Positions 1-62,942 of a stretch of 64,000 nucleotides of DNA are shown piece by piece. The stretch's first letter is position 1, and every line of letters starts with the position of its first letter. Made by a program: the position numbers and the translations under genes. The notes beneath the pieces were generated by a model. It searched no databases. It saw nothing but the letters and a program-made list of their open reading frames with translations, and was not told the origin of the DNA. The stretch comes from an uncultured Candidatus Saccharibacteria bacterium (GTDB lineage Bacteria > Patescibacteriota > Minisyncoccia > Phycocordibacterales > UBA9973). Location of the stretch: positions 8,636 through 72,635 of the forward strand of contig CAYTSO010000002.1 of NCBI GenBank assembly GCA_964440545.1, in the 5' to 3' direction.

Positions 1-2227
<2,227 letters not shown>

Positions 2228-2248
2228 ATTGTTGCATTGGATAACGAG

Positions 2249-2368
2249 GAGCCACGCTCTGCGTGGCGAACCCTTTTGGATTCAGGATTTTTTGGGGGGA
2301 ATTCAGAACAGACGGCACTTCGTGCCGACCATTTTTTTGGTTCCGAAGCCCTTTTCGAAAATTTGCGG
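2249..2368. repeat. IR-A right arm (inverted copy of 716-835)
   Basis: Perfect reverse-complement match to 716-835. Confidence 0.9.
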
Positions 2369-2562
2369 TATTCATTGTACAAAATTCGAACCTTTTTTGA
2401 AATGAATCCCGACGAGGAAATCTGAAAAATGCGGACTCGGTTTTGCGAAACAATTTTCTGGGGATACGGATTCGCAAAACCTCGGCTGATTTTTCCGCCC
2501 GCATTCCTCCCCAGACCCCTCCTGCGGGCGGGTTTCGGATTCGCCAAATTATTTTTTCGCCA
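2365..2562. repeat. IR-B left arm: 198-bp perfect inverted repeat, partner 4032-4229. It overlaps IR-A right arm by 4 nt (GCGG).
   Basis: The reverse complement of 4032-4229 is identical to 2365-2562. It contains sub-hairpins CCGCCCGCAGG...CCTGCGGGCGG and TTTTGCGAA...TTCGCAAAA. Confidence 0.9.
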
Positions 2563-2636
2563 ATCAATATTCATATATGGAATTATAACTCCATATTGAG
2601 TATAAACGCAATAGTTGATAACATGTTAATATAAAT

Positions 2637-2843
2637 ATGGCTCAAATTTCCAAAAAATTAGGAGATAACATTAAGCGGATACGGCTTCGCCGTAAAATGT
2701 CGCAAGGCGACATTTGCCGAGCAATTGATATGGATAGAAGCTATATGAGCGCAATTGAAAGTGGTAAAAAGAATGTAACCATTGCCGTTGTAGAAAAACT
2801 TGCTCGTGCGCTTAATGTTTCAGTTGATGAGTTATTGAAATAA
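2637..2843 (+). CDS. XRE-family helix-turn-helix transcriptional regulator (68 aa)
   Basis: LGDNIKRIRLRRKMSQGDICRAIDMDRSYMSAIESGKKNVTIAVVEKLARALNVSVDELL is a classic Cro/C1-type HTH. Confidence 0.8.
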   Translation: MAQISKKLGDNIKRIRLRRKMSQGDICRAIDMDRSYMSAIESGKKNVTIAVVEKLARALNVSVDELLK

Positions 2844-2847
2844 TTTT

Positions 2848-3633
2848 ATGAAACCACATTTACTATTAGTACATTCATTTCCCACAAATAGTGTTTTACT
2901 TCATGGGTTAGAAGAATTTCTTTCCGATTTTTTTATAGTACATTTTATTGACCTTCCAGGTTTTCATAAAAATAATCCACCTTTTACTGGTGAGATAACT
3001 TTAGAAAGATTTTCAAATTATTTTGATAAAAAAATCGCGGGGTTAGATGTGGACGAGTATATTGTTGGAGGGGTATCGTTCGGTTTTCTGGTTGTTAATA
3101 ACGCGAAATTAGATAAGAGATGTAAAGCCATATTAGCCATGGAGCCGTTTGTGAATACGAAATGTTTGAATACTTCTTTTCTAAAACAAAGAGGTTATGT
3201 TGTTATGGCAATATTATTAAAACTTATACATTTTTTTCATATCGAAAAACAAATATGGAAATCAAAATGGTTTAATTGGGTTTTACAAAAAGAAGCGGAT
3301 TATCCAAAAGAGAGAGTGGATACAATAATTCAACACATAGATTCTCGAACATTTTTCTCCGTAACAAGTTTATTATTGAATTACAACAAGAATCCAAATT
3401 TTCACGAACTTCCATATTTTTTAATTGGAAACTTTGAGGATAAAACTATCAATTTTAACTCTGTTGTAGAAGTCTTTAAAAAAAATTTACGAAAACTGCA
3501 TATTTTTTCCGTGCCGATTGATCATTACCCAAAAGACTTAACAAAAGAATATTTCAAAGAAAGAATACCAAATGAAAACATACAAAGTATGATTGAATCA
3601 ATAACAAACAATGATTATCAATTAATTAAATAA
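2848..3633 (+). CDS. alpha/beta-hydrolase fold protein (putative esterase/lipase)
   Basis: N-terminal LLLVHSFPTNSVLLHG and the nucleophile elbow GVSFG (GxSxG). Function otherwise unknown. Confidence 0.5.
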   Translation: MKPHLLLVHSFPTNSVLLHGLEEFLSDFFIVHFIDLPGFHKNNPPFTGEITLERFSNYFDKKIAGLDVDEYIVGGVSFGFLVVNNAKLDKRCKAILAMEPFVNTKCLNTSFLKQRGYVVMAILLKLIHFFHIEKQIWKSKWFNWVLQKEADYPKERVDTIIQHIDSRTFFSVTSLLLNYNKNPNFHELPYFLIGNFEDKTINFNSVVEVFKKNLRKLHIFSVPIDHYPKDLTKEYFKERIPNENIQSMIESITNNDYQLIK

Positions 3634-3641
3634 AATATTAT

Positions 3642-4025
3642 ATGGAAAACGAAATTTTAATATTTATCATTTCATTTATTATCGGTTTGACATGGAATAG
3701 ATTTCTTTTCATTGTTGTCCCTGATTATTTCAAAAAACCTTTTGTCCGTTCTGTTATTAAATTACGATGGCATCATTTGCACATGGGACTTGTTTTGATT
3801 ACAATCGGCACAATATTTTTTTTACTGTCGCCCGGAAATATGTTTGTAAATATTTTGCTAGGGGTCGGGCTTGGATTAGCGATTGATCTTTTTATTCCTT
3901 CCATGCAATTGGAAACGGATAGAAATAAAGAATTGGTTGTATATCGTAGTTCATTAATACCTACTTTGTTGCTCGGAGCATTAATCGTGGTTATAATTGT
4001 TGTTTTATCAATTTTTAATAAATAG
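3642..4025 (+). CDS. small hydrophobic membrane protein (3-4 TM), hypothetical
   Basis: Hydrophobic segments such as ILIFIISFIIGLTW, LVLITIGTIFFLL and LLLGALIVVIIVVL. No recognisable motif. Confidence 0.45.
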   Translation: MENEILIFIISFIIGLTWNRFLFIVVPDYFKKPFVRSVIKLRWHHLHMGLVLITIGTIFFLLSPGNMFVNILLGVGLGLAIDLFIPSMQLETDRNKELVVYRSSLIPTLLLGALIVVIIVVLSIFNK

Positions 4026-4031
4026 AAATGA

Positions 4032-4229
4032 TGGCGAAAAAATAATTTGGCGAATCCGAAACCCGCCCGCAGGAGGGGTCTGGGGAGGAATGCGGGCGGA
4101 AAAATCAGCCGAGGTTTTGCGAATCCGTATCCCCAGAAAATTGTTTCGCAAAACCGAGTCCGCATTTTTCAGATTTCCTCGTCGGGATTCATTTCAAAAA
4201 AGGTTCGAATTTTGTACAATGAATACCGC
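4032..4229. repeat. IR-B right arm (inverted copy of 2365-2562)
   Basis: Perfect reverse-complement match. The ORFs 2220-2567(-) and 3997-4275(+) encode identical peptides, which confirms the inverted duplication. Confidence 0.9.
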
Positions 4230-4258
4230 CAAATATGATATAATACCCAAGCAAATTT

Positions 4259-11606: not shown

Positions 11607-13703
<2,097 letters not shown>

Positions 13704-14071: not shown

Positions 14072-15886
14072 TTATCTTTTTGTTTTAATTTCCTCCAAAA
14101 GTTTTGAGAGTAGCTCCTCTTTTCCAATTTGCCCGAGCTGGCCGGAGTCGCGTGATTCCAGGGTGATTTTATCTGCTTCGATTTCTTTATCACCAATGAC
14201 AATCCAGTAGGGGATTTTGTTATTTTTCGCATCGCGTACTTTTCCACCCAAGTTTTTGTCTTCGTCATCGAGTTCTGCACGAATACCATTTTCTTTTAAC
14301 AATTCAAAAATTTTTTTCGCATATTCATTATGATTTTCTCTTACTGGGATCACTTTTACCTGGACAGGAGAGAGCCAGAGAGGGAAGGCGCCGGCGTAAT
14401 GCTCAATTAAGAGCCCAATAAACCTTTCAAAGCTTCCAAATAGGGCTCGATGAAGCATATAGGTTCTTTCTTGTTCACCCTTTGAGTTTGTGAATGTTAT
14501 ATTGAATCTTTCCGGCAGGTTGAAATCAAATTGCAAAGTTGAACATTGCCACAATCTTCCCAATGCGTCTTTTATTTTGAAATCCAACTTGGGTCCATAA
14601 AATGCTGCTTCCCCTTTTTCTTCTTGGAAATCCAGTTTCTTTTCAAGAGCGATTTTTCTTAATACTCCTTCTGTGAAATCCCAGCCAACATCATTGCCTG
14701 CGTATTTGTTTTTGTCTTCGGGATCTCTCAGGGAAAGGAAGACTTTTACTTTTTCTATATCAAAACCAAAGGATTTATAAATAAAAAGTATAAAATCTAT
14801 AACTCTTTTTAATTCTTCTTCTACCTGATCCTTTCTGCAAATAATATGAGCATCGTCTTGGGTAAACCCCCTTACCCTGGTAAGGCCAGACAATTCTCCT
14901 CTTTTTTCAAATCGATAAACTGTACCGCACTCTGCCCACCTAACAGGCAAATCACGATATGATTTTGGATTGTCTTTAAATATCTGAACATGAAACGGAC
15001 AATTCATCGGCTTTAAAAGATATTCTTCGGAAACCTCCGCTTTTTTGTTTTGTTGTTTTTCTTCGAGGGTTTGACCCACTTCGATTGGTGGGTACATGCT
15101 GGTGTTATAAAATCCCCAATGCCCTGATGTTTCCCAAAGAATTCTGTTCCCTATATGTGGAGTTTTTACCAAGTCGTATCCGTTTTTCAGGTGTTCTTTA
15201 TACCAAAATTCTTCAATAATTCTCCACAAAAGTGCACCCTTAGGGTGCCACAAAGGAAGTCCAGACCCTACCAGTTCATCAATGTGGAAAAGGTCTAATT
15301 CTTTTCCTAGTTTTCGATGATCCCTCTTTTTTGCTTCTTCTCTTTTGCTTAAATATTCATTAAGTTCCTCCTTGGTTTCGAAGGCGAGTCCGTAAATACG
15401 GGTAAGCATTTTGTTTTTTTCGTCTCCACGCCAGTATGCTCCGGCGATGCGGTCGAGCTTAAATGCGCTTGGGTCAATTTCTTTTGCCGGATTTTCCAAA
15501 TGTCCACCACGGCAGAGGTCAGTAAATTTGCCAGAAGTGTAAAGAGTAATTTTTTCACCCTTCTCTGCAATTTCATTTATGATCTCTATTTTATAAGGGT
15601 TATCCGCAAAATATTTTTTTGTCTCTTCTGCACTTTTTTCTTCATGTGAAAATTCCTTCCAGGTCTTTAGAAGTTCACGCATTTTCTTTTCAATTTTTGG
15701 TAAATCCTTGTCTGAAATAGGGGAGCTGAAATCAAAATCGTAATAAAAACCGTCCTCAATAGGTGGACCTAAGGTTACCTTGGTGTCTGGATAAATCTCC
15801 AAAACTGCGGCAGCTAGTAGGTGAGCCAAGGAATGTTTTAAATTGTGTAATTTATCTTCATTTGCCATATTCATCCATAATATCAC
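14072..15886 (-). CDS. thrS: threonine--tRNA ligase. The ORF opens directly with the second-domain motif HSLAHLL (no N-terminal TGS region). An ATG at ~15868 or 15874 is probably the true start.
   Basis: HSLAHLLAAAV motif, a class II catalytic core and an anticodon-binding C-terminus. Confidence 0.9.
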   Translation of the reverse strand: MILWMNMANEDKLHNLKHSLAHLLAAAVLEIYPDTKVTLGPPIEDGFYYDFDFSSPISDKDLPKIEKKMRELLKTWKEFSHEEKSAEETKKYFADNPYKIEIINEIAEKGEKITLYTSGKFTDLCRGGHLENPAKEIDPSAFKLDRIAGAYWRGDEKNKMLTRIYGLAFETKEELNEYLSKREEAKKRDHRKLGKELDLFHIDELVGSGLPLWHPKGALLWRIIEEFWYKEHLKNGYDLVKTPHIGNRILWETSGHWGFYNTSMYPPIEVGQTLEEKQQNKKAEVSEEYLLKPMNCPFHVQIFKDNPKSYRDLPVRWAECGTVYRFEKRGELSGLTRVRGFTQDDAHIICRKDQVEEELKRVIDFILFIYKSFGFDIEKVKVFLSLRDPEDKNKYAGNDVGWDFTEGVLRKIALEKKLDFQEEKGEAAFYGPKLDFKIKDALGRLWQCSTLQFDFNLPERFNITFTNSKGEQERTYMLHRALFGSFERFIGLLIEHYAGAFPLWLSPVQVKVIPVRENHNEYAKKIFELLKENGIRAELDDEDKNLGGKVRDAKNNKIPYWIVIGDKEIEADKITLESRDSGQLGQIGKEELLSKLLEEIKTKR

Positions 15887-15931: not shown

Positions 15932-16162
15932 ATGGTAGTACGAATGAGACATACAAAATCGCATACAGCAAACCGACGCTCCCACCATGCTTTGGAGAGC
16001 ACGAGTTTTTCTAAGTGCGAGAATTGCAAAGCCTTAAAACGACGTCATACCGTCTGCTCTGCTTGCGGTTTTTACCGAGGAAAAAAGGTTTTGGATTTGA
16101 TAAAAAAGACCGAAAAGAAGCAAAAGAAAGCAAAGGCAAAAAAAGTTGAACAAGGCAAGTAA
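15932..16162 (+). CDS. rpmF: 50S ribosomal protein L32 with a Lys-rich C-terminal tail
   Basis: MRHTKSHTANRRSHHAL...CSACGFYRGKKV fits the L32 consensus. Confidence 0.8.
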   Translation: MVVRMRHTKSHTANRRSHHALESTSFSKCENCKALKRRHTVCSACGFYRGKKVLDLIKKTEKKQKKAKAKKVEQGK

Positions 16163-16185
16163 TTTATTAGTGAGTGGCTACATTT

Positions 16186-16262
16186 CTTAAAATTTTTTCC
16201 TCCTGCGCCCTTCTCCTTCGGAGTGGGACCTCGGAGTTAAAAAATTTTAAGAAATTTCGCTT
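16186..16262 (+). promoter_or_regulatory. long inverted-repeat structured element between rpmF and nusB (terminator or leader structure)
   Basis: Arms TTCTTAAAATTTTTTCCTCC and GGAGTTAAAAAATTTTAAGAA flank an inner CTCC-TTCG-GAG hairpin. Confidence 0.35.
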
Positions 16263-16270
16263 CTAAAGAT

Positions 16271-17191
16271 ATGGCAAATAGGCACCTTTCAAGATCAATA
16301 GTGCTCCAGACGCTTTTCGAGTGGGATTTTTTATCTGAGGACAAAAAGAATAAAGGTCTTGCTGATAGGGAAATTCAAGATATTCTAAAAAGAAATATAA
16401 AGGAATTCGCTCCTGGTTTTGAGGACGATACTTTTGTGTTTTTGCTTCTAGAAAAGATACTTAAAAAACGCATAACTATTGATGAAATTATCGAAAAAGC
16501 GGCACCTGATTGGCCGATAGATAAAATTTCGGTTATCGATAGAAATATTTTAAGAATTGGATTAACAGAACTTCTTTTTGGTGACCGAAAAGAGGTCCCG
16601 CCCAAGGTGGCCATTAACGAAGCCATTGAGTTAGCAAAAACTTTTGGCGGGGAAAATTCTGGTAAATTTGTGAACGGGGTTCTTGGGGCGGTTTATAAAG
16701 AGATGGGGGAACCAGGTAAAGAACAAGTGAGTAAAAAGAAAAAACAAGAAGAAATTCTAGATGTTGCAAAATTGCCTGTCGAAACTCTGGGGGGTGCTCT
16801 TGTTTATTCAAAAAAAGGCGGAGAAGTTTTGTTCGCCATGGTGCACGATGTTTTTGGTTATTGGACTTTATCAAAAGGAAAAATTGAAAAAGGAGAGGAT
16901 ATTGAAGAAGGAACAAAGAGGGCTGTAAAAAAAGAAATAGGATTAGATATTGAAGTGGAAGAAAGATTGGGGGAAAATGAATATGTTGCTTCTCACCCAG
17001 AAAAAGGAAAAAGTTTGAAAAAAGTAATGTACTTTCTAGCCAAAAGTGAAAACAAAGAACTTGTTCTGGAAAAGTCCGGAGGACTAGACGGGGCGCGATG
17101 GTTTCCTCTTTCGTCTATTCCAGAACTTCGCATCTATAACGATATCATTCCTTTAATCGGGAGAGCGATTGAAATTATTAGCAAAAAATAA
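16271..17191 (+). CDS. nusB: NusB antitermination factor fused to a C-terminal NUDIX hydrolase domain
   Basis: Residues 1-140 are NusB-like (SRSIVLQTLFEWDF...ESGKFVNGVLGAV). The C-terminus carries the NUDIX box SKGKIEKGEDIEEGTKRAVKKEIGL. A single uninterrupted ORF. Confidence 0.75.
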   Translation: MANRHLSRSIVLQTLFEWDFLSEDKKNKGLADREIQDILKRNIKEFAPGFEDDTFVFLLLEKILKKRITIDEIIEKAAPDWPIDKISVIDRNILRIGLTELLFGDRKEVPPKVAINEAIELAKTFGGENSGKFVNGVLGAVYKEMGEPGKEQVSKKKKQEEILDVAKLPVETLGGALVYSKKGGEVLFAMVHDVFGYWTLSKGKIEKGEDIEEGTKRAVKKEIGLDIEVEERLGENEYVASHPEKGKSLKKVMYFLAKSENKELVLEKSGGLDGARWFPLSSIPELRIYNDIIPLIGRAIEIISKK

Positions 17192-24476: not shown

Positions 24477-24818
24477 ATGAACGAAGAACATGACAAGGTG
24501 TTTCTAGAGTATGTAGTAAAGGCACTAGTGGACAATCCGAACGATGTAAAGATTGACCGCACGGTAGATGAAATGGGGGTACTAATTTCTCTAACGGTAA
24601 ATCCTGCTGATATGGGTAAGATTATCGGACGCATGGGAAATACCGCAAAGGCAATTCGCACTTTACTACGAATCATTGGGATGAAGAACAACGCTCGCGT
24701 TAATCTGAAGATCAATGAACCAGCCGGAAGCACGAGGCCAGAAAGGCCTGCAGAATCCGCAAATGCCCCAACCATGAAAACGGTTGACCAGGCGATGGAA
24801 GATCTAAAGGGAATATAG
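24477..24818 (+). CDS. KH-domain RNA-binding protein (UPF0109/YlqC-like)
   Basis: GKIIGRMGNTAKAIRTLLRIIG is a KH GxxG-type motif. Its position between rpsP and trmD is conserved in many bacteria. Confidence 0.7.
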   Translation: MNEEHDKVFLEYVVKALVDNPNDVKIDRTVDEMGVLISLTVNPADMGKIIGRMGNTAKAIRTLLRIIGMKNNARVNLKINEPAGSTRPERPAESANAPTMKTVDQAMEDLKGI

Positions 24819-24865: not shown

Positions 24866-25591
24866 ATGATTATGCGTTTCCATATCATCACAATTTTCCC
24901 GGAGATTTTTGATTCATATTTAAATGAATCTATTGTCGGGCGGGCAATTAAGAATAAAAAAATTTCAATAAAATTTTATAATCCACGAGATTTTATAAAG
25001 GGGGATAAGAGCAATTATAAGCCCGTGGATTACAAACCCTATGGTGGAGGCCCAGGAATGGTAATGCGAGCGGAGCCAATGATTAAAGCGATAGAGAAAG
25101 CAGTTCTCGCTGCTCAGAAATTTTCTTCAGGTCCTCGGTTCTCCTCGCGATTACGCTCGGCCAGACCATTCAGAAAAATTCCGAGCAACTCGATTAAAGT
25201 AATTCTCTTTTCTCCTTCCGGTAAAAAATTTGAGACAGCCTACGCCAAAAAATCGGTAAAAAAATACACAGACATTATTTTAATTTCCGGCAGATATGAA
25301 GGAATAGATGCTAGGGTGCAGAAAATATTTAAAGCAGAAGAGATCTCAGTAGGGGATTATGTGCTGACCGGAGGCGAACTCCCGGCGATGGTTCTAATAG
25401 ATTCTATCTCTCGACAAATTCCCGGAGTTTTGGGTAATTACGAATCTCTAGAAGAAGAACGAATTTCTTCAAGTGAGGTTTATACCCGCCCAGAAGTCTT
25501 GGAATATAAGAATAAAAAATACAAAGTTCCGAAAGTTCTCCTTTCCGGTAATCACAAAAAAATAGAGGAGTGGAGAAAAAATAAAAAATAG
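24866..25591 (+). CDS. trmD: tRNA (guanine37-N1)-methyltransferase. It contains a ~44-nt GC-rich in-frame insert at 25128-25171.
   Basis: Motifs MRFHIITIFPE, YGGGPGMVM and SGRYEGIDARV. Confidence 0.9.
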   Translation: MIMRFHIITIFPEIFDSYLNESIVGRAIKNKKISIKFYNPRDFIKGDKSNYKPVDYKPYGGGPGMVMRAEPMIKAIEKAVLAAQKFSSGPRFSSRLRSARPFRKIPSNSIKVILFSPSGKKFETAYAKKSVKKYTDIILISGRYEGIDARVQKIFKAEEISVGDYVLTGGELPAMVLIDSISRQIPGVLGNYESLEEERISSSEVYTRPEVLEYKNKKYKVPKVLLSGNHKKIEEWRKNKK

Positions 25592-45832: not shown

Positions 45833-46634
45833 AAAAGCAAAAAGAAAAAAGTTTTTTAAAATTACGCTTGGAATAATTGTTTTAATTGTTTTATTTTATT
45901 TTAGGTTAAATATCTGGAATGGATTTTCTTATACGGCTCACGCAATATTTCGTCCGTTGTTAGTGTTAGGAAATAATACAGAAAACAAATTGCAAAACTT
46001 GCAATCTTATTTTGCTTCGAAAAGTTCCCTAGGGAACGAAAATCAAGAACTTAAATTAAGGCTAGAAAAAGAAGAAGCGCGCATGGCCAATTATGATTCT
46101 TTGTTTATCGAAAATGAAAGACTAAAAGAAATTTTAGAAAGAAAAAGAGAAGAAATTTCAATGACAATCTCCGCTATTTTGTCTCAAACAAATCAAAGTT
46201 TTTACGACTCCCTTATTATTGATGTAGGAAAGAGTCAAAATATAAAAAAAGGAGATATGGTTTTTGGCCTAGGAAATATTCCCATAGGGCGAGTTGCCAA
46301 TGTTTACTCAAATTCGTCCAAGGTAATTTTGTTTTCAACTCCCGGTGAAAAAACAGAGGTAATAATTTCTAGCAAGTCGATCGATCCAGAACAAATCGGG
46401 GGCACTTTTGTTGAGCTGATTGGACGAGGCGGAGGAAATTTTGAAATGATTTTACCTCGAGACTTCATTTTAGAAAAAGGGGATCAAGTCACAATGCCCG
46501 GAATAAATCCTTATGTGGTGGCTGTTGTGGAAACAATCATTTCCGATCCGCGCAATCCCTTCACCAAGGCATTACTCACCAGTCCAGTGAATGTACGAGA
46601 ACTAAAATTTGTGGAGATAGAACGACAGAAATAA
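45813..46634 (+). CDS. mreC: rod shape-determining protein MreC
   Basis: N-terminal TM segment, a coiled coil and C-terminal beta domains. Located immediately after mreB. Confidence 0.75.
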   Translation: MSYLLDKKAKRKKFFKITLGIIVLIVLFYFRLNIWNGFSYTAHAIFRPLLVLGNNTENKLQNLQSYFASKSSLGNENQELKLRLEKEEARMANYDSLFIENERLKEILERKREEISMTISAILSQTNQSFYDSLIIDVGKSQNIKKGDMVFGLGNIPIGRVANVYSNSSKVILFSTPGEKTEVIISSKSIDPEQIGGTFVELIGRGGGNFEMILPRDFILEKGDQVTMPGINPYVVAVVETIISDPRNPFTKALLTSPVNVRELKFVEIERQK

Positions 46635-47947
46635 TGAAATTTAAAATACAGAAAAAGCTTAAAAATAGCTTAGGAAGAGTTGGTGTTTTAGAAACCAACC
46701 ATGGAGTTATAGAGACCCCAGCTTTTGTGGCAGTGGGGACGAAAGCGACGATTAAATCCTTAAATCCTGAACAGGTGCGTGAGGCTGGTACGCAAATAGT
46801 GCTTGGAAATACTTATCATTTATATTTACAACCAGGCGACGAAGTTGTTCGAGACGCAGGTGGAATCGGAAAATTCATGAACTGGAAGGGGCCAACCATG
46901 ACGGACTCCGGTGGTTTCCAGGTTTTTTCTTTAGGTGTGGCCTACGGAAAAGATATTTCTAAAATCACTAAAATTACAGATCCATCACTTTTAATTCCAG
47001 AACGTTTTGATGATAGTGATGCGCCGAGATTAGCAAAAATCGGAGCGGATGGTGTTTCTTTTAAGTCCCATCTAGACGGTTCCATTCATTACATTACTCC
47101 AGAGAAATCAATTCAAATTCAACATAATCTTGGGGCGGATATAATTTTTGCTTTTGACGAATGTACTAGCCCGGCGGAAGACTTGCGTTATCAGGAAGAG
47201 GCGCTAGAACGGACTCATCGTTGGGCGGAGAGGAGTTTGAGAGAGCATCAAAAGCTGGAAAATCAAAAACAAGTTCGTTCTCAGGTCCTCGGCTCTCCTT
47301 CGCCTTCGGCTCGGCCAGACCATTCGCCCGAACATGTTTTTGATTTTCCTCAAGCACTTTTTGGTATCGTGCAAGGTGGGCGAGAAGAATCATTGCGAAA
47401 AAAATCTGCTAAAATTATTTCAGAAATGCGAGTCTTCTCTCCTTTGGGGAGGGCGGAGGGAGGGGTTGGTTTTGATGGTTTTGGTATTGGTGGTAGTTTT
47501 GCCAAGGAAGATATGTCTTCTGCGGTGAGGTGGGTGAATGAAATATTGCCCGAAGAAAAACCCAGGCACCTATTGGGTATAGGGGAGCCAGAGGATTTGT
47601 TTATGGGCATAGAGAACGGCGTAGATCTTTTTGATTGTGTTCTGCCCACTCGTTTAGGCAGAAACGGGACAATTTATACTAGAAAGGGAAAAATTATTAT
47701 TACTAACGCAAAATTCAGAAACGATTTTGCTCCCATCGAAAAGGATTGTCAGTGCTACACCTGTCAGCATTACACCAAGGCTTATATCGCGCACCTTTTC
47801 CACGGGAAAGAGATGCTTGCCGGAACCCTATCCTCTTTGCATAATTTGTATTTTATTGTTAATCTAGTGGGGAGGATTCGACGGTCAATTTTAGATGATA
47901 ATTTTTTTGAGTTTAAAAAAGAATTTTTAAGCGAATATCTTAAATAG
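46634..47947 (+). CDS. tgt: queuine tRNA-ribosyltransferase with a ~25-aa GC-rich insert around 47270-47340
   Basis: Motifs ETPAFVAVGTKATIKSL, LGNTYHLY and the C-terminal zinc motif CQCYTCQHYTKAYIAHL. Confidence 0.9.
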   Translation: MKFKIQKKLKNSLGRVGVLETNHGVIETPAFVAVGTKATIKSLNPEQVREAGTQIVLGNTYHLYLQPGDEVVRDAGGIGKFMNWKGPTMTDSGGFQVFSLGVAYGKDISKITKITDPSLLIPERFDDSDAPRLAKIGADGVSFKSHLDGSIHYITPEKSIQIQHNLGADIIFAFDECTSPAEDLRYQEEALERTHRWAERSLREHQKLENQKQVRSQVLGSPSPSARPDHSPEHVFDFPQALFGIVQGGREESLRKKSAKIISEMRVFSPLGRAEGGVGFDGFGIGGSFAKEDMSSAVRWVNEILPEEKPRHLLGIGEPEDLFMGIENGVDLFDCVLPTRLGRNGTIYTRKGKIIITNAKFRNDFAPIEKDCQCYTCQHYTKAYIAHLFHGKEMLAGTLSSLHNLYFIVNLVGRIRRSILDDNFFEFKKEFLSEYLK

Positions 47948-56119: not shown

Positions 56120-57022
56120 ATGATTACAAAAAAATTTTTATGGTTAGCTGCTTTTGTTTTTCTTGTGATTGGTTTTTTTGCCGGTCAATATTTTGGTGTT
56201 ATCCCGGTATTTGCCAGTGACAATGACCATGATGGCATGATTGACTCAAAAGACACCGATGATGACAATGACAATATTCCTGACGTAGATGATAAGTATC
56301 CATTTGATTACGATAATGATGGGATAGGTGACAAGGATGATACCGAAGACAATAGTGCCGATGAAAAAGAATTGTTGGAGGATGAAGGTGATGAAACAAG
56401 TAAAGAGGAAATTAAAGATGAAGTAAAAAAAGATGATACCGGCGGTCCCGTCTCCTCCATCACTGTTTCCGGAACTGGCAGTGCGGTAAGCTGGAAAGTG
56501 GACGGATACTCAAAAAGTGGATTTAAAATTGTTTGGTCAAAAAACAGCAAACCAACCTACCCAACCAGAGAAGGTGACAAGTATATTTACTTGTCCGATC
56601 CAAGTAGTCGAAGTACAACCCTGGATGCTTTTAGTGGATCAGGCACTTATTATGTAAGGGTTTGTGAATATCTTGGTGGCGCTTGTGGAATCTATTCGAA
56701 CCAGATAGAGGTTGGGCTAACTGGAAATGATACTAAACCAACATCTCCCGTTTCCTCCATCACTGTTTCCGGAACTGGCAGTGCGGTAAGCTGGAAAGTG
56801 GACGGATACTCAAAAAGTGGATTTAAAATTGTTTGGTCAAAAAACAGCAAACCAACCTACCCAACCAGAGAAGGTGACAAGTATATTTACTTGTCCGATC
56901 CAAGTAGTCGAAGTACAACCCTGGATGCTTTTAGTGGATCAGGCACTTATTATGTAAGGGTTTGTGAATATCTTGGTGGCGCTTGTGGAATCTATTCGAA
57001 CCAGATAGAGGTTGGGCTTTAA
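56120..57022 (+). CDS. membrane-anchored surface protein: Asp-rich Ca-binding (thrombospondin-3-like) repeats followed by two identical 91-aa beta-domains
   Basis: DNDHDGMIDSKDTDDDNDNIPDVDDKYPFDYDNDGIGDKDD, then two copies of the domain beginning PVSSITVSGTGSAVSWKVDGY. Confidence 0.6.
   Translation: MITKKFLWLAAFVFLVIGFFAGQYFGVIPVFASDNDHDGMIDSKDTDDDNDNIPDVDDKYPFDYDNDGIGDKDDTEDNSADEKELLEDEGDETSKEEIKDEVKKDDTGGPVSSITVSGTGSAVSWKVDGYSKSGFKIVWSKNSKPTYPTREGDKYIYLSDPSSRSTTLDAFSGSGTYYVRVCEYLGGACGIYSNQIEVGLTGNDTKPTSPVSSITVSGTGSAVSWKVDGYSKSGFKIVWSKNSKPTYPTREGDKYIYLSDPSSRSTTLDAFSGSGTYYVRVCEYLGGACGIYSNQIEVGL
56447..57018 (+). repeat. near-perfect tandem direct repeat, 2 units, period 300 bp, 1 mismatch over ~272 bp
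   Basis: 56447-56718 versus 56747-57018. The only mismatch is at 56452/56752. Confidence 0.85.
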
Positions 57023-59691: not shown

Positions 59692-61296
59692 ATGAAAAGA
59701 CTTTTATCTATTGTATTTGTTTTAGTTTTTGTTTTATTTGGTTTAGCAGATAGTGCCAGGGCAAAGGTTCCTCCATTAGTAATTAATGAGATTGATTATG
59801 ACCAACCGAGCACAGACACCGCGGAATTTATTGAGTTGAAAAATGCTGGAGACGGAACAATTAACTTAGACACCTTTGAACTTCGTTTTATTAATGGTTC
59901 AGGGGGAGGAGCAGTGGTCTACAAAACTATTGATTTGCCCGATTTTGATTTAGGGTCTGGAGATCATTACGTTATTTGTGCTAATTCCGCTACGGTTGCT
60001 AACTGCGATTTAGATTCAAATCCTGACACAAATTTTATTCAAAACGGTGACCCAGATGCCATTGCTTTGTTTTCTGGGGAAACAATTATTGATACTGTGA
60101 GCTATGGAGGAGATGTTCCAGGGTATACCGAAGGATCTGGAACGATAACTGATGATGGTGGAGCTGGCCAGGACAACATGGGGATTTCTCGATACCTGGA
60201 CGGACAAGATACGGGTGATAACTCTGCCGATTTTGCTTATATGTGTATTACTCCCGGGGGTGAGAATACTTGTGATGCACCACCGGTTGATGCTGACAAT
60301 GACGGGGTTCCGGATTCAAGCGATAATTGTCCACTTGTGGCCAATGCAGATCAAGCAGATGCAGATGGCGATGGAATAGGGGATGCTTGCGATAATTGTG
60401 TGGATGTTGCCAACCCTGACCAAGCAGACGAAGACCAAAATGGGATAGGTGATGCTTGCGAGGTTCCAGTAGACACGACAGACCCTACAATTGTTTCGGC
60501 CATTAGTACAGACCCAAACACAGTTGAAGTATTATTTGATGAGGAATTGCAAAACAATCCACCAAGCTCAGACTTTTTTGATTTCAAGGCCCGTGTCGGT
60601 CATTATCCTCAAATAGACGATTTTGATGTATACAATAACAAGAGCGGAGAAGAAAGAGGCAGTCTCCTTTCTTATGGGATAGAGAGTGTTAGTTATGAAG
60701 ATAAAAAAGTAACAATTGTTCTTACAAATCCGATATTAAAAGGAGACAATCCCTGGTTGTATGTTTATCCAATAGAAAATAGTCTTGTTGATTTAGCCGG
60801 CAATTATTTTAATGGTGGAAATAGTTATAATATGGCAATTGAAGTTGAAGAAGAGGAAGAAAAATCTGACAGGCCGAGTGCCAGTGGTGGAAGATATCCT
60901 CGTTTTCCGGACCCAACAGAAATTCCTGGGTGTGGCCTAGAGACAACAGGTTTTAGCGCTATCACCGGAGAATCATGCGAAACAAATATTCCCCATGAAG
61001 AAGATCTGCTTGTTTCCCCAAATTCTCAAGAACAAGCTGGCCAGGTTCTGGGAGCAGAAAAATACGTTTTTACAATGTTTTTAAAAAGAGAACAGCCTCC
61101 GTATTCAAAAGGAATTCAGGCAAATGAAGTATTAGAATTGCAAAAATTCTTAAATAAAAATGGTTATGAAAGCGGTCCAGAGGATGGAAAATTTGGGCCG
61201 ATAACCGAAGGAGCGGTAATACGTTTTCAGTTGGCGAATGGTTTAGTGGGGGATGGAATTGTGGGTGAACTTACTCGTGCAGTGCTTAATAAATAA
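59692..61296 (+). CDS. secreted multidomain surface protein: lamin-tail domain (LTD), thrombospondin type-3 Ca-binding repeats and a C-terminal peptidoglycan-binding domain
   Basis: Signal peptide. LTD region [10 protein letters not shown]...FIELKN. TSP3 region [59 protein letters not shown]_binding_1 region [31 protein letters not shown]. Confidence 0.7.
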
Positions 61297-61330
61297 AAGA
61301 AAAAACGCCCCGACCTAGATCGGGGCGCGA
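61296..61330. terminator. bidirectional rho-independent terminator between convergent genes
   Basis: Hairpin GCCCCGA-CCTAGA-TCGGGGC flanked by A-runs and T-runs. Confidence 0.6.
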
Positions 61331-61347
61331 TATGCGTTGCGTGATGA

Positions 61348-62583
61348 TTATTTACCGGGGATATCCTGTTCGGATACCCCGTTCTTCTCGCTCCACACGA
61401 GATAGTGGATTACCTCTCCCGGCAGGGGTGCCGGGGGGTCGTAGAACTGCGTGCCCGCGGAAGGGACAGTCGCGACCAGATTCCAGGGCCCGTCAGGAGT
61501 CAACGACCGGTAGACCAAGTATCCGTCCACAGGACCAATACCGCTGCCACACGGGACCTCAGCCGTCTGCTCTACCCAACTTCCCCCTCCCGTGTTCATC
61601 ATCAGGAGAGTCACGGGTGGCTTTTCCGTGCACACTGGTGTTAGAGGTGACGGAGAGCACGGTGTGGTCATCGTGTTCCCATAGAGGGGAACATTCTTGA
61701 CTTCTACAACGTGTTCCGTTCCGTTCACTAGACCGGTGATTTGGAGAGGAGATGTCGCATTCGGGACGATCACCCCGTTGTGCCACACTTCTGTGTGGTC
61801 CAAGCGAGGATCGTATTCACCCGGGCTCCAATTGATGTAGACGCTGGAGTTGTCAGCCCATCCCGATACCGACGGCGGATTTACATCCGCGTCCCAGTAT
61901 TCGAAGCGGTAGAGGTGGATTCCCTCTACGGCGACCGAGCTGGAACTTACGAAGTAAATCCGCAAAATCGCGGGTCCGGTTGTTGTGCACTGCCGGAGGT
62001 CCAGCGTAACCCAGGTCGTTGCCATTGACCCGGAGTACGCGGGGATACCGCGTAGTCCGGTCGGAGGTGCATCCAAACTGGTGGATGTGCTCATCGTGTA
62101 GTTGTACCCGGGGCTAAGCACTCCCCCGACCGACGTGACTTCACTCCAGCTGTCTCCTCCATTGAAAGAGACCTGGATGATGAAGCCGTCGTATCGAGGT
62201 TGCAATGCCCACGACATTTGGAAAAATGCCATGGACATCTCGCTCACTTCGAAGCTGTGACCGGAGCTCGAGCCGACCTGCAGAACGTTGTGAGACCTGA
62301 CGGGAGGATTTTGCAAATAGAACTTTCCCGTCCTGTTTTCTGAGTTCCAGACGGTAGTCCAGTCGTAGATGGTGTCCGTGTCGGACGACCATGTCTGGCA
62401 TGCCGTGTTGTTCGGGCTGGAGGAGGAGTTCTCCATCCAGCTGAAGTTGTCCTCGCAATTCGTGCTTGCGTCCGGGACGTCCGGTCTGTCCAGCGCGCAA
62501 AGGCCGACGCAGGCGAGAAGGATTGCCAAAACCACGACCAAATTATTCTTTTTCATCGGTTCCTCCGTTTTTTTATAGGACAT
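61348..62583 (-). CDS. GC-rich (~58%) secreted protein / putative lipoprotein with fibronectin-III-like and Ig-like beta domains
   Basis: Signal peptide with a lipobox-like LLAC. Composition differs sharply from the ~35% GC background. A promoter-like TTGACA...TAGATAAT lies in the upstream intergenic region. Confidence 0.6.
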   Translation of the reverse strand: MSYKKTEEPMKKNNLVVVLAILLACVGLCALDRPDVPDASTNCEDNFSWMENSSSSPNNTACQTWSSDTDTIYDWTTVWNSENRTGKFYLQNPPVRSHNVLQVGSSSGHSFEVSEMSMAFFQMSWALQPRYDGFIIQVSFNGGDSWSEVTSVGGVLSPGYNYTMSTSTSLDAPPTGLRGIPAYSGSMATTWVTLDLRQCTTTGPAILRIYFVSSSSVAVEGIHLYRFEYWDADVNPPSVSGWADNSSVYINWSPGEYDPRLDHTEVWHNGVIVPNATSPLQITGLVNGTEHVVEVKNVPLYGNTMTTPCSPSPLTPVCTEKPPVTLLMMNTGGGSWVEQTAEVPCGSGIGPVDGYLVYRSLTPDGPWNLVATVPSAGTQFYDPPAPLPGEVIHYLVWSEKNGVSEQDIPGK

Positions 62584-62942
62584 CTCTAATGGACACGCAC
62601 TGTGCGGTCTATAGGATGTCCTTTATTTTGAAGAACTATATTTTCAACGAAGCCTTAACGGACTTCGTGGCATTATTGTATTACAAAGCACAACAAATGT
62701 CAATACTAAAAAAATACAAATAATTTATTTATAAACATAAGGGCTTGACATTTTTTTGACAATAGTAGATAATGCAAGCTAGATAAGTTCTAAAGACAAA
62801 GCCATAAAAAACTAACAAATAGTGGCATAAAGTGTCTTTATTCTTTTGTTTATAAGTTTATTATTAAAGGTCAAAATTAATTATTAGTTAATACAATCCC
62901 GGCAGTAGAGCAGAGCTCACTACGGGACAAGAAAAAAATATA

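Follow-up and report, generated by a model that had tools for sequence, protein, structure and literature searches.

A GC-rich hairpin repeat lying in frame in trmD, tgt and other housekeeping genes of Patescibacteria, and its probable mobility

The DNA analysed here (the window) is a 64,000-nucleotide stretch of a contig from an uncultured Candidatus Saccharibacteria bacterium (CAYTSO010000002.1), and it carries a short GC-rich repeat once in each of two unrelated housekeeping genes. The first of these, trmD (24866..25591, plus strand), encodes a tRNA m1G37 methyltransferase of 241 residues (Pfam PF01746, NCBIfam equivalog TrmD, PDB TrmD matches at 1e-47), and the second, tgt (46634..47947, plus strand), a queuine tRNA-ribosyltransferase of 437 residues (Pfam PF01702, NCBIfam equivalog Tgt, PDB matches). 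Segments 25128-25171 of trmD and 47282-47325 of tgt are identical at 36 of 44 positions, and a repeat search of the window recovers them as family D13 (45 nt at 82%). Both contain the exact end blocks CAGGTCCTCGG (11 nt) and GCTCGGCCAGACCATTC (17 nt), and a gapped pattern joining the two blocks has two matches in the window and none in 100 dinucleotide shuffles. The repeat is read as SSGPRFSSRLRSARPF in TrmD and as SQVLGSPSPSARPDHS in Tgt, in different frames, and its GC content is 65-70% against a window average of ~37%. The shared repeat, its exact end blocks, the difference in frame and the high GC content were all part of a description made earlier from the sequence (the original prediction), and each is confirmed at these positions.

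Alignment of copies together with their flanks shows that the 44-nt repeat is the centre of a long hairpin whose outer AT-rich arms vary from copy to copy. A full copy is ~70-110 nt long and consists of an AT-rich arm of ~15-27 nt, 1-4 unpaired nucleotides, CAGGTCCTCGG, a variable GC-rich apical stem-loop, (C)CGGCCAGACC, ATTC and the complementary arm; the element, referred to as family A, can be written as yTCAGGTCCTCGG, the variable apical stem-loop and CGGCCAGACCATTC, with AT-rich inverted arms of ~15-27 bp on both sides. In trmD the 5' arm GCTGCTCAGAAATTTTCT (25109..25126, plus strand) pairs at 15 of 18 positions with the 3' arm AGAAAAATTCCGAGCAAC (25172..25189, plus strand; placed by alignment, pair counts and fold), and the core between them (25127..25171, plus strand), composed of TCAGGTCCTCGG, the apical hairpin and GCTCGGCCAGACCATTC, is the repeat of the original prediction and is matched by a covariance model. 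The arms of the tgt copy (47257-47277 and 47329-47349) form 21 bp with one mismatch (20 of 21 paired) in an inverted-repeat scan. Folding of 25100-25200 gives -39.7 kcal/mol (z -4.7) for the bottom strand and -25.3 kcal/mol for the top strand. Above the outer helix there would be a small internal loop, with yT/CA on one side and AUUC on the other, then an invariant 4-bp helix GGUC/GACC, a loop (CUC versus A) and an invariant GG/CC pair, and at the top the variable GC-rich stem-loop, exemplified by CCGGG-N7-CCCGG and CCUCGC..GCUCGG and probably accompanied by an extra hairpin in some copies.

Support for the outer helix comes from 27 aligned copies, in which 20 of 21 pairs change on both sides and 77% of outer-helix cells are paired; shifting the partner by 1-3 columns lowers this figure to 34-50%. 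In 100 copies the arms reach at least 12 bp (median 20 bp, range 12-30), and 19 of the 100 have perfect arms. The covariance model built from the 27 copies, run with filters off, scores the trmD copy at 69.4 bits and the tgt copy at 65.5 bits, with the next-best match in the window at 13.7 bits; the two are the only family A copies in the 64 kb, and weak matches at 14839-14908 and 892-962 are on inspection chance or unrelated. Rfam models, searched over the whole window at gathering thresholds, report only RNase P and tRNAs, with no match to the element, and a permissive scan at the trmD copy gives noise only (E = 0.12 or worse). A known RNA, an intron, a ribozyme and a captured rRNA or tRNA fragment were ruled out, there being no Rfam match. 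A splicing motif of the bulge-helix-bulge type was also considered, and was dropped because of the loop geometry, the 4-bp GGTC/GACC helix having on inspection internal loops of 3x4 and 3x1 and not two opposed 3-nt bulges, and because of the in-frame conservation described below.

What was inserted can be seen at tgt, where a relative (L244, 81% protein identity) has an empty allele in which GAAAATCAGAAACAAGTTTATTCT is followed directly by CAAGCACTTTTTGG. At the same site the window has GAAAATCAAAAACAAGTTCGTTCT, then CAGG-core-CCATTC, GCC, CGAACATGTTTTTGATTTTCC and T, and only then CAAGCACTTTTTGG. Codon alignment with the empty allele shows that the insertion is exactly 69 nt, both in the window and in a second relative (L003), and in the window it occupies 47282..47350 on the plus strand, comprising the core (47282-47325), GCC, the 3' arm (47329-47349) and a single T. 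In its last third the insertion repeats, as reverse complement, the 21 nt of host coding DNA immediately upstream, matching at 20 of 21 positions. This upstream segment, GGAAAATCAAAAACAAGTTCG (47257..47277, plus strand), forms the 5' arm, is also present in the empty allele, and encodes ENQKQV, codons that are conserved in Tgt with and without inserts. Of the two arms at the tgt site, then, one belongs to the host gene and the second duplicates it in inverted form. There is no direct target duplication at this one clean site, with at most a 2-nt CA ambiguity. The empty state is regarded as ancestral because its length matches outgroup Tgt, with 16 residues between the RWAxRS helix and ALFGI as compared to what we take to be ~14 in the E. 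coli and Z. mobilis proteins. Relative to empty alleles the insert lengths are whole codons, adding 21-37 residues.

In both proteins the repeat falls where known structures have little or no corresponding sequence, as had been predicted: TrmD residues 84-108 correspond to 2 residues in the solved structure of E. coli TrmD (1P9P), and Tgt residues 204-240 to ~12 residues in that of Z. mobilis Tgt. A loop location, also proposed at the outset, is supported by AlphaFold2 models built from 53-sequence alignments, in which each insert is a coil of low confidence that connects a helix to a strand. In TrmD, residues 88-106 have a predicted local distance difference test (pLDDT) score below 50 and are modelled as coil between helix 69-85 and strand 110-121; in Tgt, residues 220-235, also with pLDDT below 50, lie inside the predicted coil 219-240 between helix 184-218 and strand 241-246. 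Orthologues lacking the insert are found among close relatives, including a 216-residue TrmD and Tgt proteins of 403-410 residues. The 120 closest TrmD proteins were picked by protein similarity alone, and thus independently of the DNA pattern; ~50 of them have no insert (214-220 residues), and 44 have the element at a single common site in three frames (KFSSGPR..SARPFRK, NFSQVLG..PQTIRK and SRSSGRS..RAQPDTRK). Among the 120 closest Tgt proteins 9 have no insert (403-410 residues) and 13 have a family A element, and most of the remainder have different inserts at the same place; some element-bearing Tgt proteins switch frame within the element (FSGPR..QPDHSPE). The repeat is an element at the nucleotide level, and not a protein loop.

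A scan of one genome per species with the pattern CAGGTCCTCGG-N10-40-GGCCAGACC yielded, among the matches listed, ~33 true ones, which have conserved flanks in common and come from genomes of 29-52% GC. Every named genome in this set belongs to the Patescibacteria (Paceibacterota, Nomurabacteria, Parcubacteria and Saccharibacteria, all low-GC), and the other listed pattern matches are evident chance ones in genomes of 53-75% GC. A stricter 25-nt pattern matched at least 120 metagenome stretches, and when genomes and metagenomes are pooled there are at least 135 distinct copies, from independent assemblies held at NCBI, JGI and ENA. In 135 copies the core, measured from CAGG to GACC, is 36-60 nt long, most commonly 39-41 nt. 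In related loci totalling 275 kb the covariance model picks up 34 copies, including two that the strict pattern missed. We note that one 3.8-kb metagenome contig has three family A copies inside 1.4 kb (L132:1777-3207), in both orientations, and that two of the three have an apical sequence identical to that of the window tgt copy.

Most copies (120 of 135, 89%) are within open reading frames (ORFs) of at least 100 residues, and 15 of the 135 look intergenic. The hosts assigned by Pfam fall into ~20 gene families. Among them are TrmD, Tgt, CCA-adding enzyme, PheT, LeuRS, MnmA, a GatA-type amidase, KsgA, TsaD, a class-V aminotransferase (cysteine desulfurase), UvrA, UvrD, an Asp/Glu (MurI-like) racemase, Mur ligase, BacA, a cytidylyltransferase, a DUF4147/MOFRL protein and an S-adenosylmethionine-dependent methyltransferase. 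The LeuRS of two Saccharibacteria-type metagenome-assembled genomes (L042 and L115) additionally has a NUDIX domain after the editing domain (Pfam), an unusual fusion that is unrelated to the hairpin element. The original prediction had proposed a small selfish or repeat element that colonises protein loops in this lineage, and that a search for further copies would distinguish a repeat from an old loop. The many copies in many unrelated genes favour a repeat, with at least 135 copies in ~20 gene families bearing out the colonisation, although the 44 nt are only the core of a 70-110-nt hairpin. The element is indeed present in the lineage but is not restricted to it, spanning several classes of Patescibacteria, and of the two terms used repeat is secure whereas selfish is an interpretation. 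With only two copies in the window, both in loop regions of variable length among homologues, one might have suspected lineage-specific loops that merely look alike, through ancient insertion or low-complexity convergence, or an assembly or amplification artefact. The survey of copies refutes such explanations, to which we attach practically no weight: the similarity is at the nucleotide level and crosses frames, the independent NCBI, JGI and ENA assemblies represent different phyla-level groups, intergenic copies exist, the pattern never appears in shuffles, and orthologous copies diverge with compensation, as artefacts would not.

Genic copies are found in both orientations, 89 sense (54, 21 and 14 in the three frames) and 31 antisense (26, 5 and 0), and the antisense frame with zero use is the one that reads TGA from CCTGAr. 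All 120 maintain one frame that is open and stop-free across arms and core. At the 15 non-genic copies the neighbouring ORFs stop or start 40-120 nt away, and no element-broken gene was seen. Because the genic copies always keep the host frame open, the element is most simply interpreted as being read through, and would thus be translated as an extra floppy loop adding ~21-37 residues. A different possibility is that the insert is absent from the mature protein, either through removal at the RNA level as in a small intron or through translational bypassing, for which the T4 gene 60 gap and the GC-rich 'byps' of yeast mitochondria are parallels. GC-rich structured inserts in AT-rich genes would be expected from such a process, as would a peptide that is not conserved and is read in three frames at one site. 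The genic fraction of 89%, being near the coding density of these genomes (which we assume to be high), would also suggest that insertions into genes are tolerated. Skipping or removal would not, however, account for the one open frame kept by 120 of 120 genic copies, the zero copies in the frame bearing a TGA stop, the 0 of 15 non-genic copies at which an ORF runs in and breaks, or insert lengths in whole codons relative to empty alleles; with no match to an intron or ribozyme family and no fixed orientation to the mRNA, we consider it very improbable.

Mobility is indicated by a near-identical 88-nt unit, CAGAAAAAAGCTCAGACT-core-ATTCGCCTGACCAATTTTCTG with the same 27-nt apical sequence, which occurs in tgt (L193, sense), in bacA (L203, antisense) and in a Mur ligase gene (L233, antisense). 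The left arm of the unit corresponds to Tgt host codons (QKKA; compare CAGAAACAAGTT in the empty allele), and outside it lies a short inverted repeat that differs in each copy (GGAGAAT/ATTCTCC, GCCAC/GTGGC and TTTGGCAT/ACGCCAAA). These sequences are most economically explained if a copy that resided in Tgt, and had taken its arms from there, was duplicated into the two other genes and gained a new outer layer in them. No empty bacA or Mur ligase alleles are present among the fetched loci, and the outer repeats could have arisen by new duplication or could be palindromes that the target already had. Copies in LeuRS, PheT and TsaD likewise have one arm pair in common, GCCTCGCCTGATGCTTTTGCT/GCAAAAGCATACAGGCTCGGC. 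At the Tgt site the 88-nt unit is found in both orientations (L193 and L205), with the CAGAAAA/TTTTCTG ends staying in place, a configuration that fits inversion by recombination between the arms; LeuRS, the CCA enzyme and cysteine desulfurase also each have a site at which copies of either orientation are found.

The arms themselves change in a coordinated manner. Orthologous trmD copies have multi-base compensatory differences (CTCAGAAG/CTTCTGAG, CTTGTAAA/TTTACAAG and CTCAAAAA/TTTTTGAG), orthologous tgt copies differ as GTTCG/CGAAC versus GCTCG/CGAGC, and some Tgt lineages have quite different yet perfect arms of 24-25 bp. These comparisons suggest that arms are re-copied from each other and do not drift by single mutations.

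The Tgt loop has also received other hairpins. In the relative L247 (tgt at 1001-2278) the core CCTGCGCCCTTCTCCTTCGGAGCGGGACCCTCGGGCG is inserted in frame at this site, and the same core is present in the window in an intergenic hairpin, family B, detected by inverted-repeat scan and folds at 16182..16255 on the plus strand. This copy has perfect 17-bp AT-rich arms and a 40-nt GC-rich core, CCTCCTGCGCCCTTCTCCTTCGGAGTGGGACCTCGGAGTT, lies between an rpmF-like ORF (15932..16162) and a nusB-like ORF (16271..17191), and folds at -31.0 kcal/mol (z -5.8) on the top strand and -35.9 kcal/mol (z -7.4) on the bottom. A further relative, L246 (tgt at 1001-2329), has at the Tgt site a hairpin with 25-bp arms and a fold of -74.7 kcal/mol. 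Across relatives this one loop hosts at least three unrelated hairpin inserts with different cores, families B and C included, and protein alignments at the site (SFLGSLS..ACETP, NFSALRPSPSERDPRAQKI and LLSHGSHSNLNVVNES..) suggest that each insert is likewise read in several frames. From these other GC-rich-core hairpins, at the Tgt site and in the window, it follows that there is a group of hairpin elements of which the repeat first noticed is one family.

The arm mismatches of family A show a strong asymmetry, with 70 A·C or C·A and 13 G·T or T·G counted on the CAGG.. strand. The excess holds in all contexts (46:8 in sense copies, 15:5 in antisense copies and 9:0 in intergenic copies) and for 35 of the 37 host-gene groups that are informative (p = 1e-8). 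For 121 of 133 copies the predicted fold is more stable on the complementary strand, with a mean of -44.3 kcal/mol as compared to -37.3 kcal/mol on the CAGG strand. Since A·C on the CAGG strand is a G·T wobble on its complement, it seems to be on one given single strand that the hairpin matters, whichever strand is transcribed. A preference that is independent of the transcribed strand speaks for single-stranded DNA, or for a transcript specific to the element, as the relevant form, and not for a signal in the mRNA. A replication-strand bias, such as insertion into the lagging-strand template in the manner of IS200/IS605 would produce, could not be separated out, as GC skew tracks the orientation of the host gene and not that of the element, and the intergenic copies divide 6:6. 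Polymerase error was considered as the origin of the G·T asymmetry, but the geometry at tgt (the new arm lying 3' on the top strand) does not fit it.

The strand preference bears on the main rival explanation, that the host retains the hairpin as a DNA or RNA signal, specific to one strand and bound by a Patescibacteria-wide protein, for example in replication or priming, in chromosome organisation or as an antisense or regulatory RNA, with the peptide being a tolerated by-product. Selection on a folded strand would give mismatches that are almost only G·T on that strand in 35 of 37 host groups, and would keep orthologous arms pairing through multi-base compensation; identical end blocks across distant classes of Patescibacteria and the low copy number are also in keeping with a host signal. 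We nonetheless judge this explanation unlikely. Many close relatives lack the element and have intact genes (about half of the closest TrmD proteins, and the empty Tgt alleles), the ~20 host gene families reveal no positional logic, and relatives have the unrelated cores of families B and C at the same Tgt site. Orientation to transcription varies (89 sense and 31 antisense) with no separable replication-strand bias, the near-identical units in three unrelated genes resemble recent transposition, and there is no Rfam match.

The explanation we favour, with a probability of roughly 0.78, is that the two 44-nt repeats are the cores of a small non-coding palindromic (hairpin) repeat element of the Patescibacteria, or candidate phyla radiation (CPR), that is mobile and non-autonomous. 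A plausible scenario is that the active form is a hairpin on one single strand (the GAATGGTCTGGCC.. strand, complement of the CAGG... strand), and that it would be moved either by a trans-acting enzyme or by template-switch or fold-back copying of flanking DNA into a new inverted arm during replication or repair. Arms would be generated or refreshed by this fold-back or template-switch copying, and copies would flip in place by arm-arm recombination. Selection would then purge insertions that break a frame or fall in structured parts of a protein, leaving those in permissive loops. More tentatively, the element could represent an unrecognised class of bacterial mobile element, which would move as a single-stranded hairpin, make an inverted and not a direct duplication of target flanks, pick up arms from successive host sites and persist through an undiscovered enzyme or a lineage-specific quirk of replication or repair, its hairpin perhaps being co-opted as a strand-specific signal.

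Several observations weigh against a mobile element. The copy number is low, with 2 copies in the 64-kb window and ~1 extra per 100 kb of related loci, which is modest for an active selfish repeat. No larger parent was found in 1.19 Mb of Patescibacteria loci, in which left and right blocks separated by 70 nt to 5 kb were sought, there is no match in IMG/VR viral contigs, INPHARED phages or PLSDB plasmids and no vector, and no transposase or other candidate enzyme was identified within the 8-20-kb stretches around copies that were in view, no genome-wide comparison of gene content having been made. Copies were gathered through exact end blocks, so the conservation of those blocks is partly by construction. 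Both arms look inserted at the older or more diverged sites (TrmD, UvrA, the L063 methyltransferase and TsaD), and it is at tgt alone that the rule of one host-derived arm is clearly demonstrated. Arms that stay paired by compensation, together with the tolerance of G·T on one strand, could mean that the hairpin itself is under selection, with a function for either the host or the element. Finally, the case for translation of the insert, probable as it appears, comes only from conservation of frame.

Among the various other GC-rich or repeated features of the window, we note a second GC-rich insert in the same tgt gene (47405-47487, encoding MRVFSPLGRAEGG) that is missing from Z. mobilis Tgt. 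Its plus strand forms a long G·U-rich hairpin (-29.6 kcal/mol, z -3.6), and its minus strand does not (-7.4). This insert may represent a different, older family of hairpin element whose preferred strand is opposite to that of the family A copy. A GC-rich 39-nt unit (GAAGCCGAAGGTCCCGAGCCTGCCGAAG..) is present twice in tandem at 13401-13481 inside gyrB (11616..13703), has no significant hairpin and is translated into acidic, low-complexity sequence linking the Toprim domain of GyrB to its C-terminal domain. At the 3' end of a KH-domain gene (24477..24818), positions 24719-24769 are 65% GC and encode the tail PAGSTRPERPAESANAP on a KhpA-like protein, so that here too a small and conserved gene has received GC-rich sequence. 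The gene for a large serine recombinase (548..2227, minus strand) shares part of its length with a tRNA (632-718) and is surrounded (548-4232) by inverted repeats that are 100% identical (716-835/2249-2368 and 2362-2562/4032-4232), the latter pair holding 75% GC islands; inversion of the segment, integration of an element and faulty assembly are all conceivable origins of the region. A 273-nt sequence is present in two copies of 100% identity, with a spacing of 300 nt, at 56446-57018 within an ORF (56120..57022) that has no Pfam match. Lastly, 61300-62600 is 70-78% GC as compared to ~37% for the genome, contains an ORF of 411 residues (61348..62583, minus strand) with no Pfam match, and adjoins a gene for a cell-surface-type protein (59692..61296, with LTD, TSP_3 and PG_binding domains); it may be foreign DNA or a chimeric contig end.

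The Patescibacteria make up a large share of bacterial diversity and have tiny, gene-dense genomes. If a hairpin element can be accommodated within TrmD, Tgt, aminoacyl-tRNA synthetases, UvrA and cell-wall enzymes, it would account for part of the many lineage-specific inserts in their proteins, would affect gene calling, alignment and marker-gene phylogeny, and would offer natural strain-typing markers in the presence or absence of copies at sites. It would also point to an unknown mode of moving or generating DNA, in which inverted target duplication is combined with single-strand hairpin specificity, and to a bacterial system that makes disordered loops from non-coding DNA in all reading frames, with a bearing on the origin of new protein segments.

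No description of such an element in Patescibacteria or the CPR was found in the literature searched, coverage of which is incomplete, so that an earlier description is possible; a 2024 review of prokaryotic MITEs, the miniature transposable elements with inverted repeats, does not mention Patescibacteria (PMC10969869). The terminal inverted repeats of MITEs are conserved for their cognate transposase, whereas here the arms vary and the centre is conserved, and in place of the direct target-site duplication there is, at the one clean site in tgt, an inverted copy of the flank. Repetitive extragenic palindromic (REP) sequences are 20-40 bp long, extragenic, and have a GTAG or CGTC head (PMC3733652). 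As compared to these and to the bacterial interspersed mosaic elements (BIMEs) built from them, the present element is 89% intragenic and its ends are yTCAGG.. and ..GACCATTC, or GAATGG.. on the other strand, with no GTAG or CGTC head. The likeness to REP/BIME sequences with their REP-associated tyrosine transposases (RAYTs), to IS200/IS605 ends and to integron attC sites is that of a hairpin folded on one strand and recognised by a trans-acting enzyme, which the G·T asymmetry fits; in the stretches around copies, however, no RAYT, TnpA or IntI gene was linked to the element. None of the REP/RAYT, IS200/IS605 and attC systems is known to us to create inverted target duplications. The attC sites, moreover, conserve their outer ends (the R'' and R' boxes) around a variable centre and lie in cassette arrays, at cassette boundaries next to intI, whereas this element conserves its centre and lies inside housekeeping genes.

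Bypass elements break the frame or carry stops with matched take-off and landing codons, unlike the genic copies here, all of which stay in frame with no stop. Mitochondria have mobile GC-rich hairpins (yeast GC clusters, 'byps' and double-hairpin elements), and byps are skipped by the ribosome. Nematomorpha mitochondria have perfect inverted repeats within translated genes, with both arms coding (PMC6649704). What these have in common with the present element is the presence of GC-rich hairpin inserts in AT-rich compact genomes, including within protein-coding genes, but they are organellar and have no sequence relation to it, and the Nematomorpha palindromes are without a shared core. New inverted repeats also arise by template switching, through reverse-complement copying of adjacent sequence (PMC10710096), and the tgt insertion has beside its core exactly the form set out there. 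Template switching is a mutational process, however, which alone leaves unexplained why a conserved 40-50-nt core recurs across phyla in more than 100 places. We suggest, with considerable reserve, that insertion proceeds by a mechanism of a new kind.

The functionally nearest known system would appear to be the Rickettsia palindromic elements (RPEs), a parallel drawn in the original prediction that holds for behaviour but not for homology. RPEs are ~150 bp long and fall into ten families, with 44 in-frame integrations in R. conorii, each encoding a conserved peptide (PMC10969869). In both cases short palindromic repeats of reduced AT-rich genomes have entered numerous unrelated housekeeping genes without disturbing the frame, apparently giving the proteins additional surface segments, and the same sites are occupied in related species. 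An NCBIfam scan (E up to 0.1) of TrmD, Tgt and three other hosts gave host-enzyme families only and no RPE domain models. On homology, as judged by this protein scan, and on taxon, the element falls outside the RPEs, its hosts being Patescibacteria with no true match in Rickettsia or the Rickettsiales. An RPE has a conserved peptide in one frame and a conserved full-length consensus, whereas this element is read in five of six frames with only its nucleotides conserved, has a short conserved GC-rich centre with arms specific to the copy or sub-family, can have at least one arm that is an inverted copy of host DNA, and has a preferred strand. The best reading of these comparisons is that the element resembles the RPEs but probably has a new architecture.

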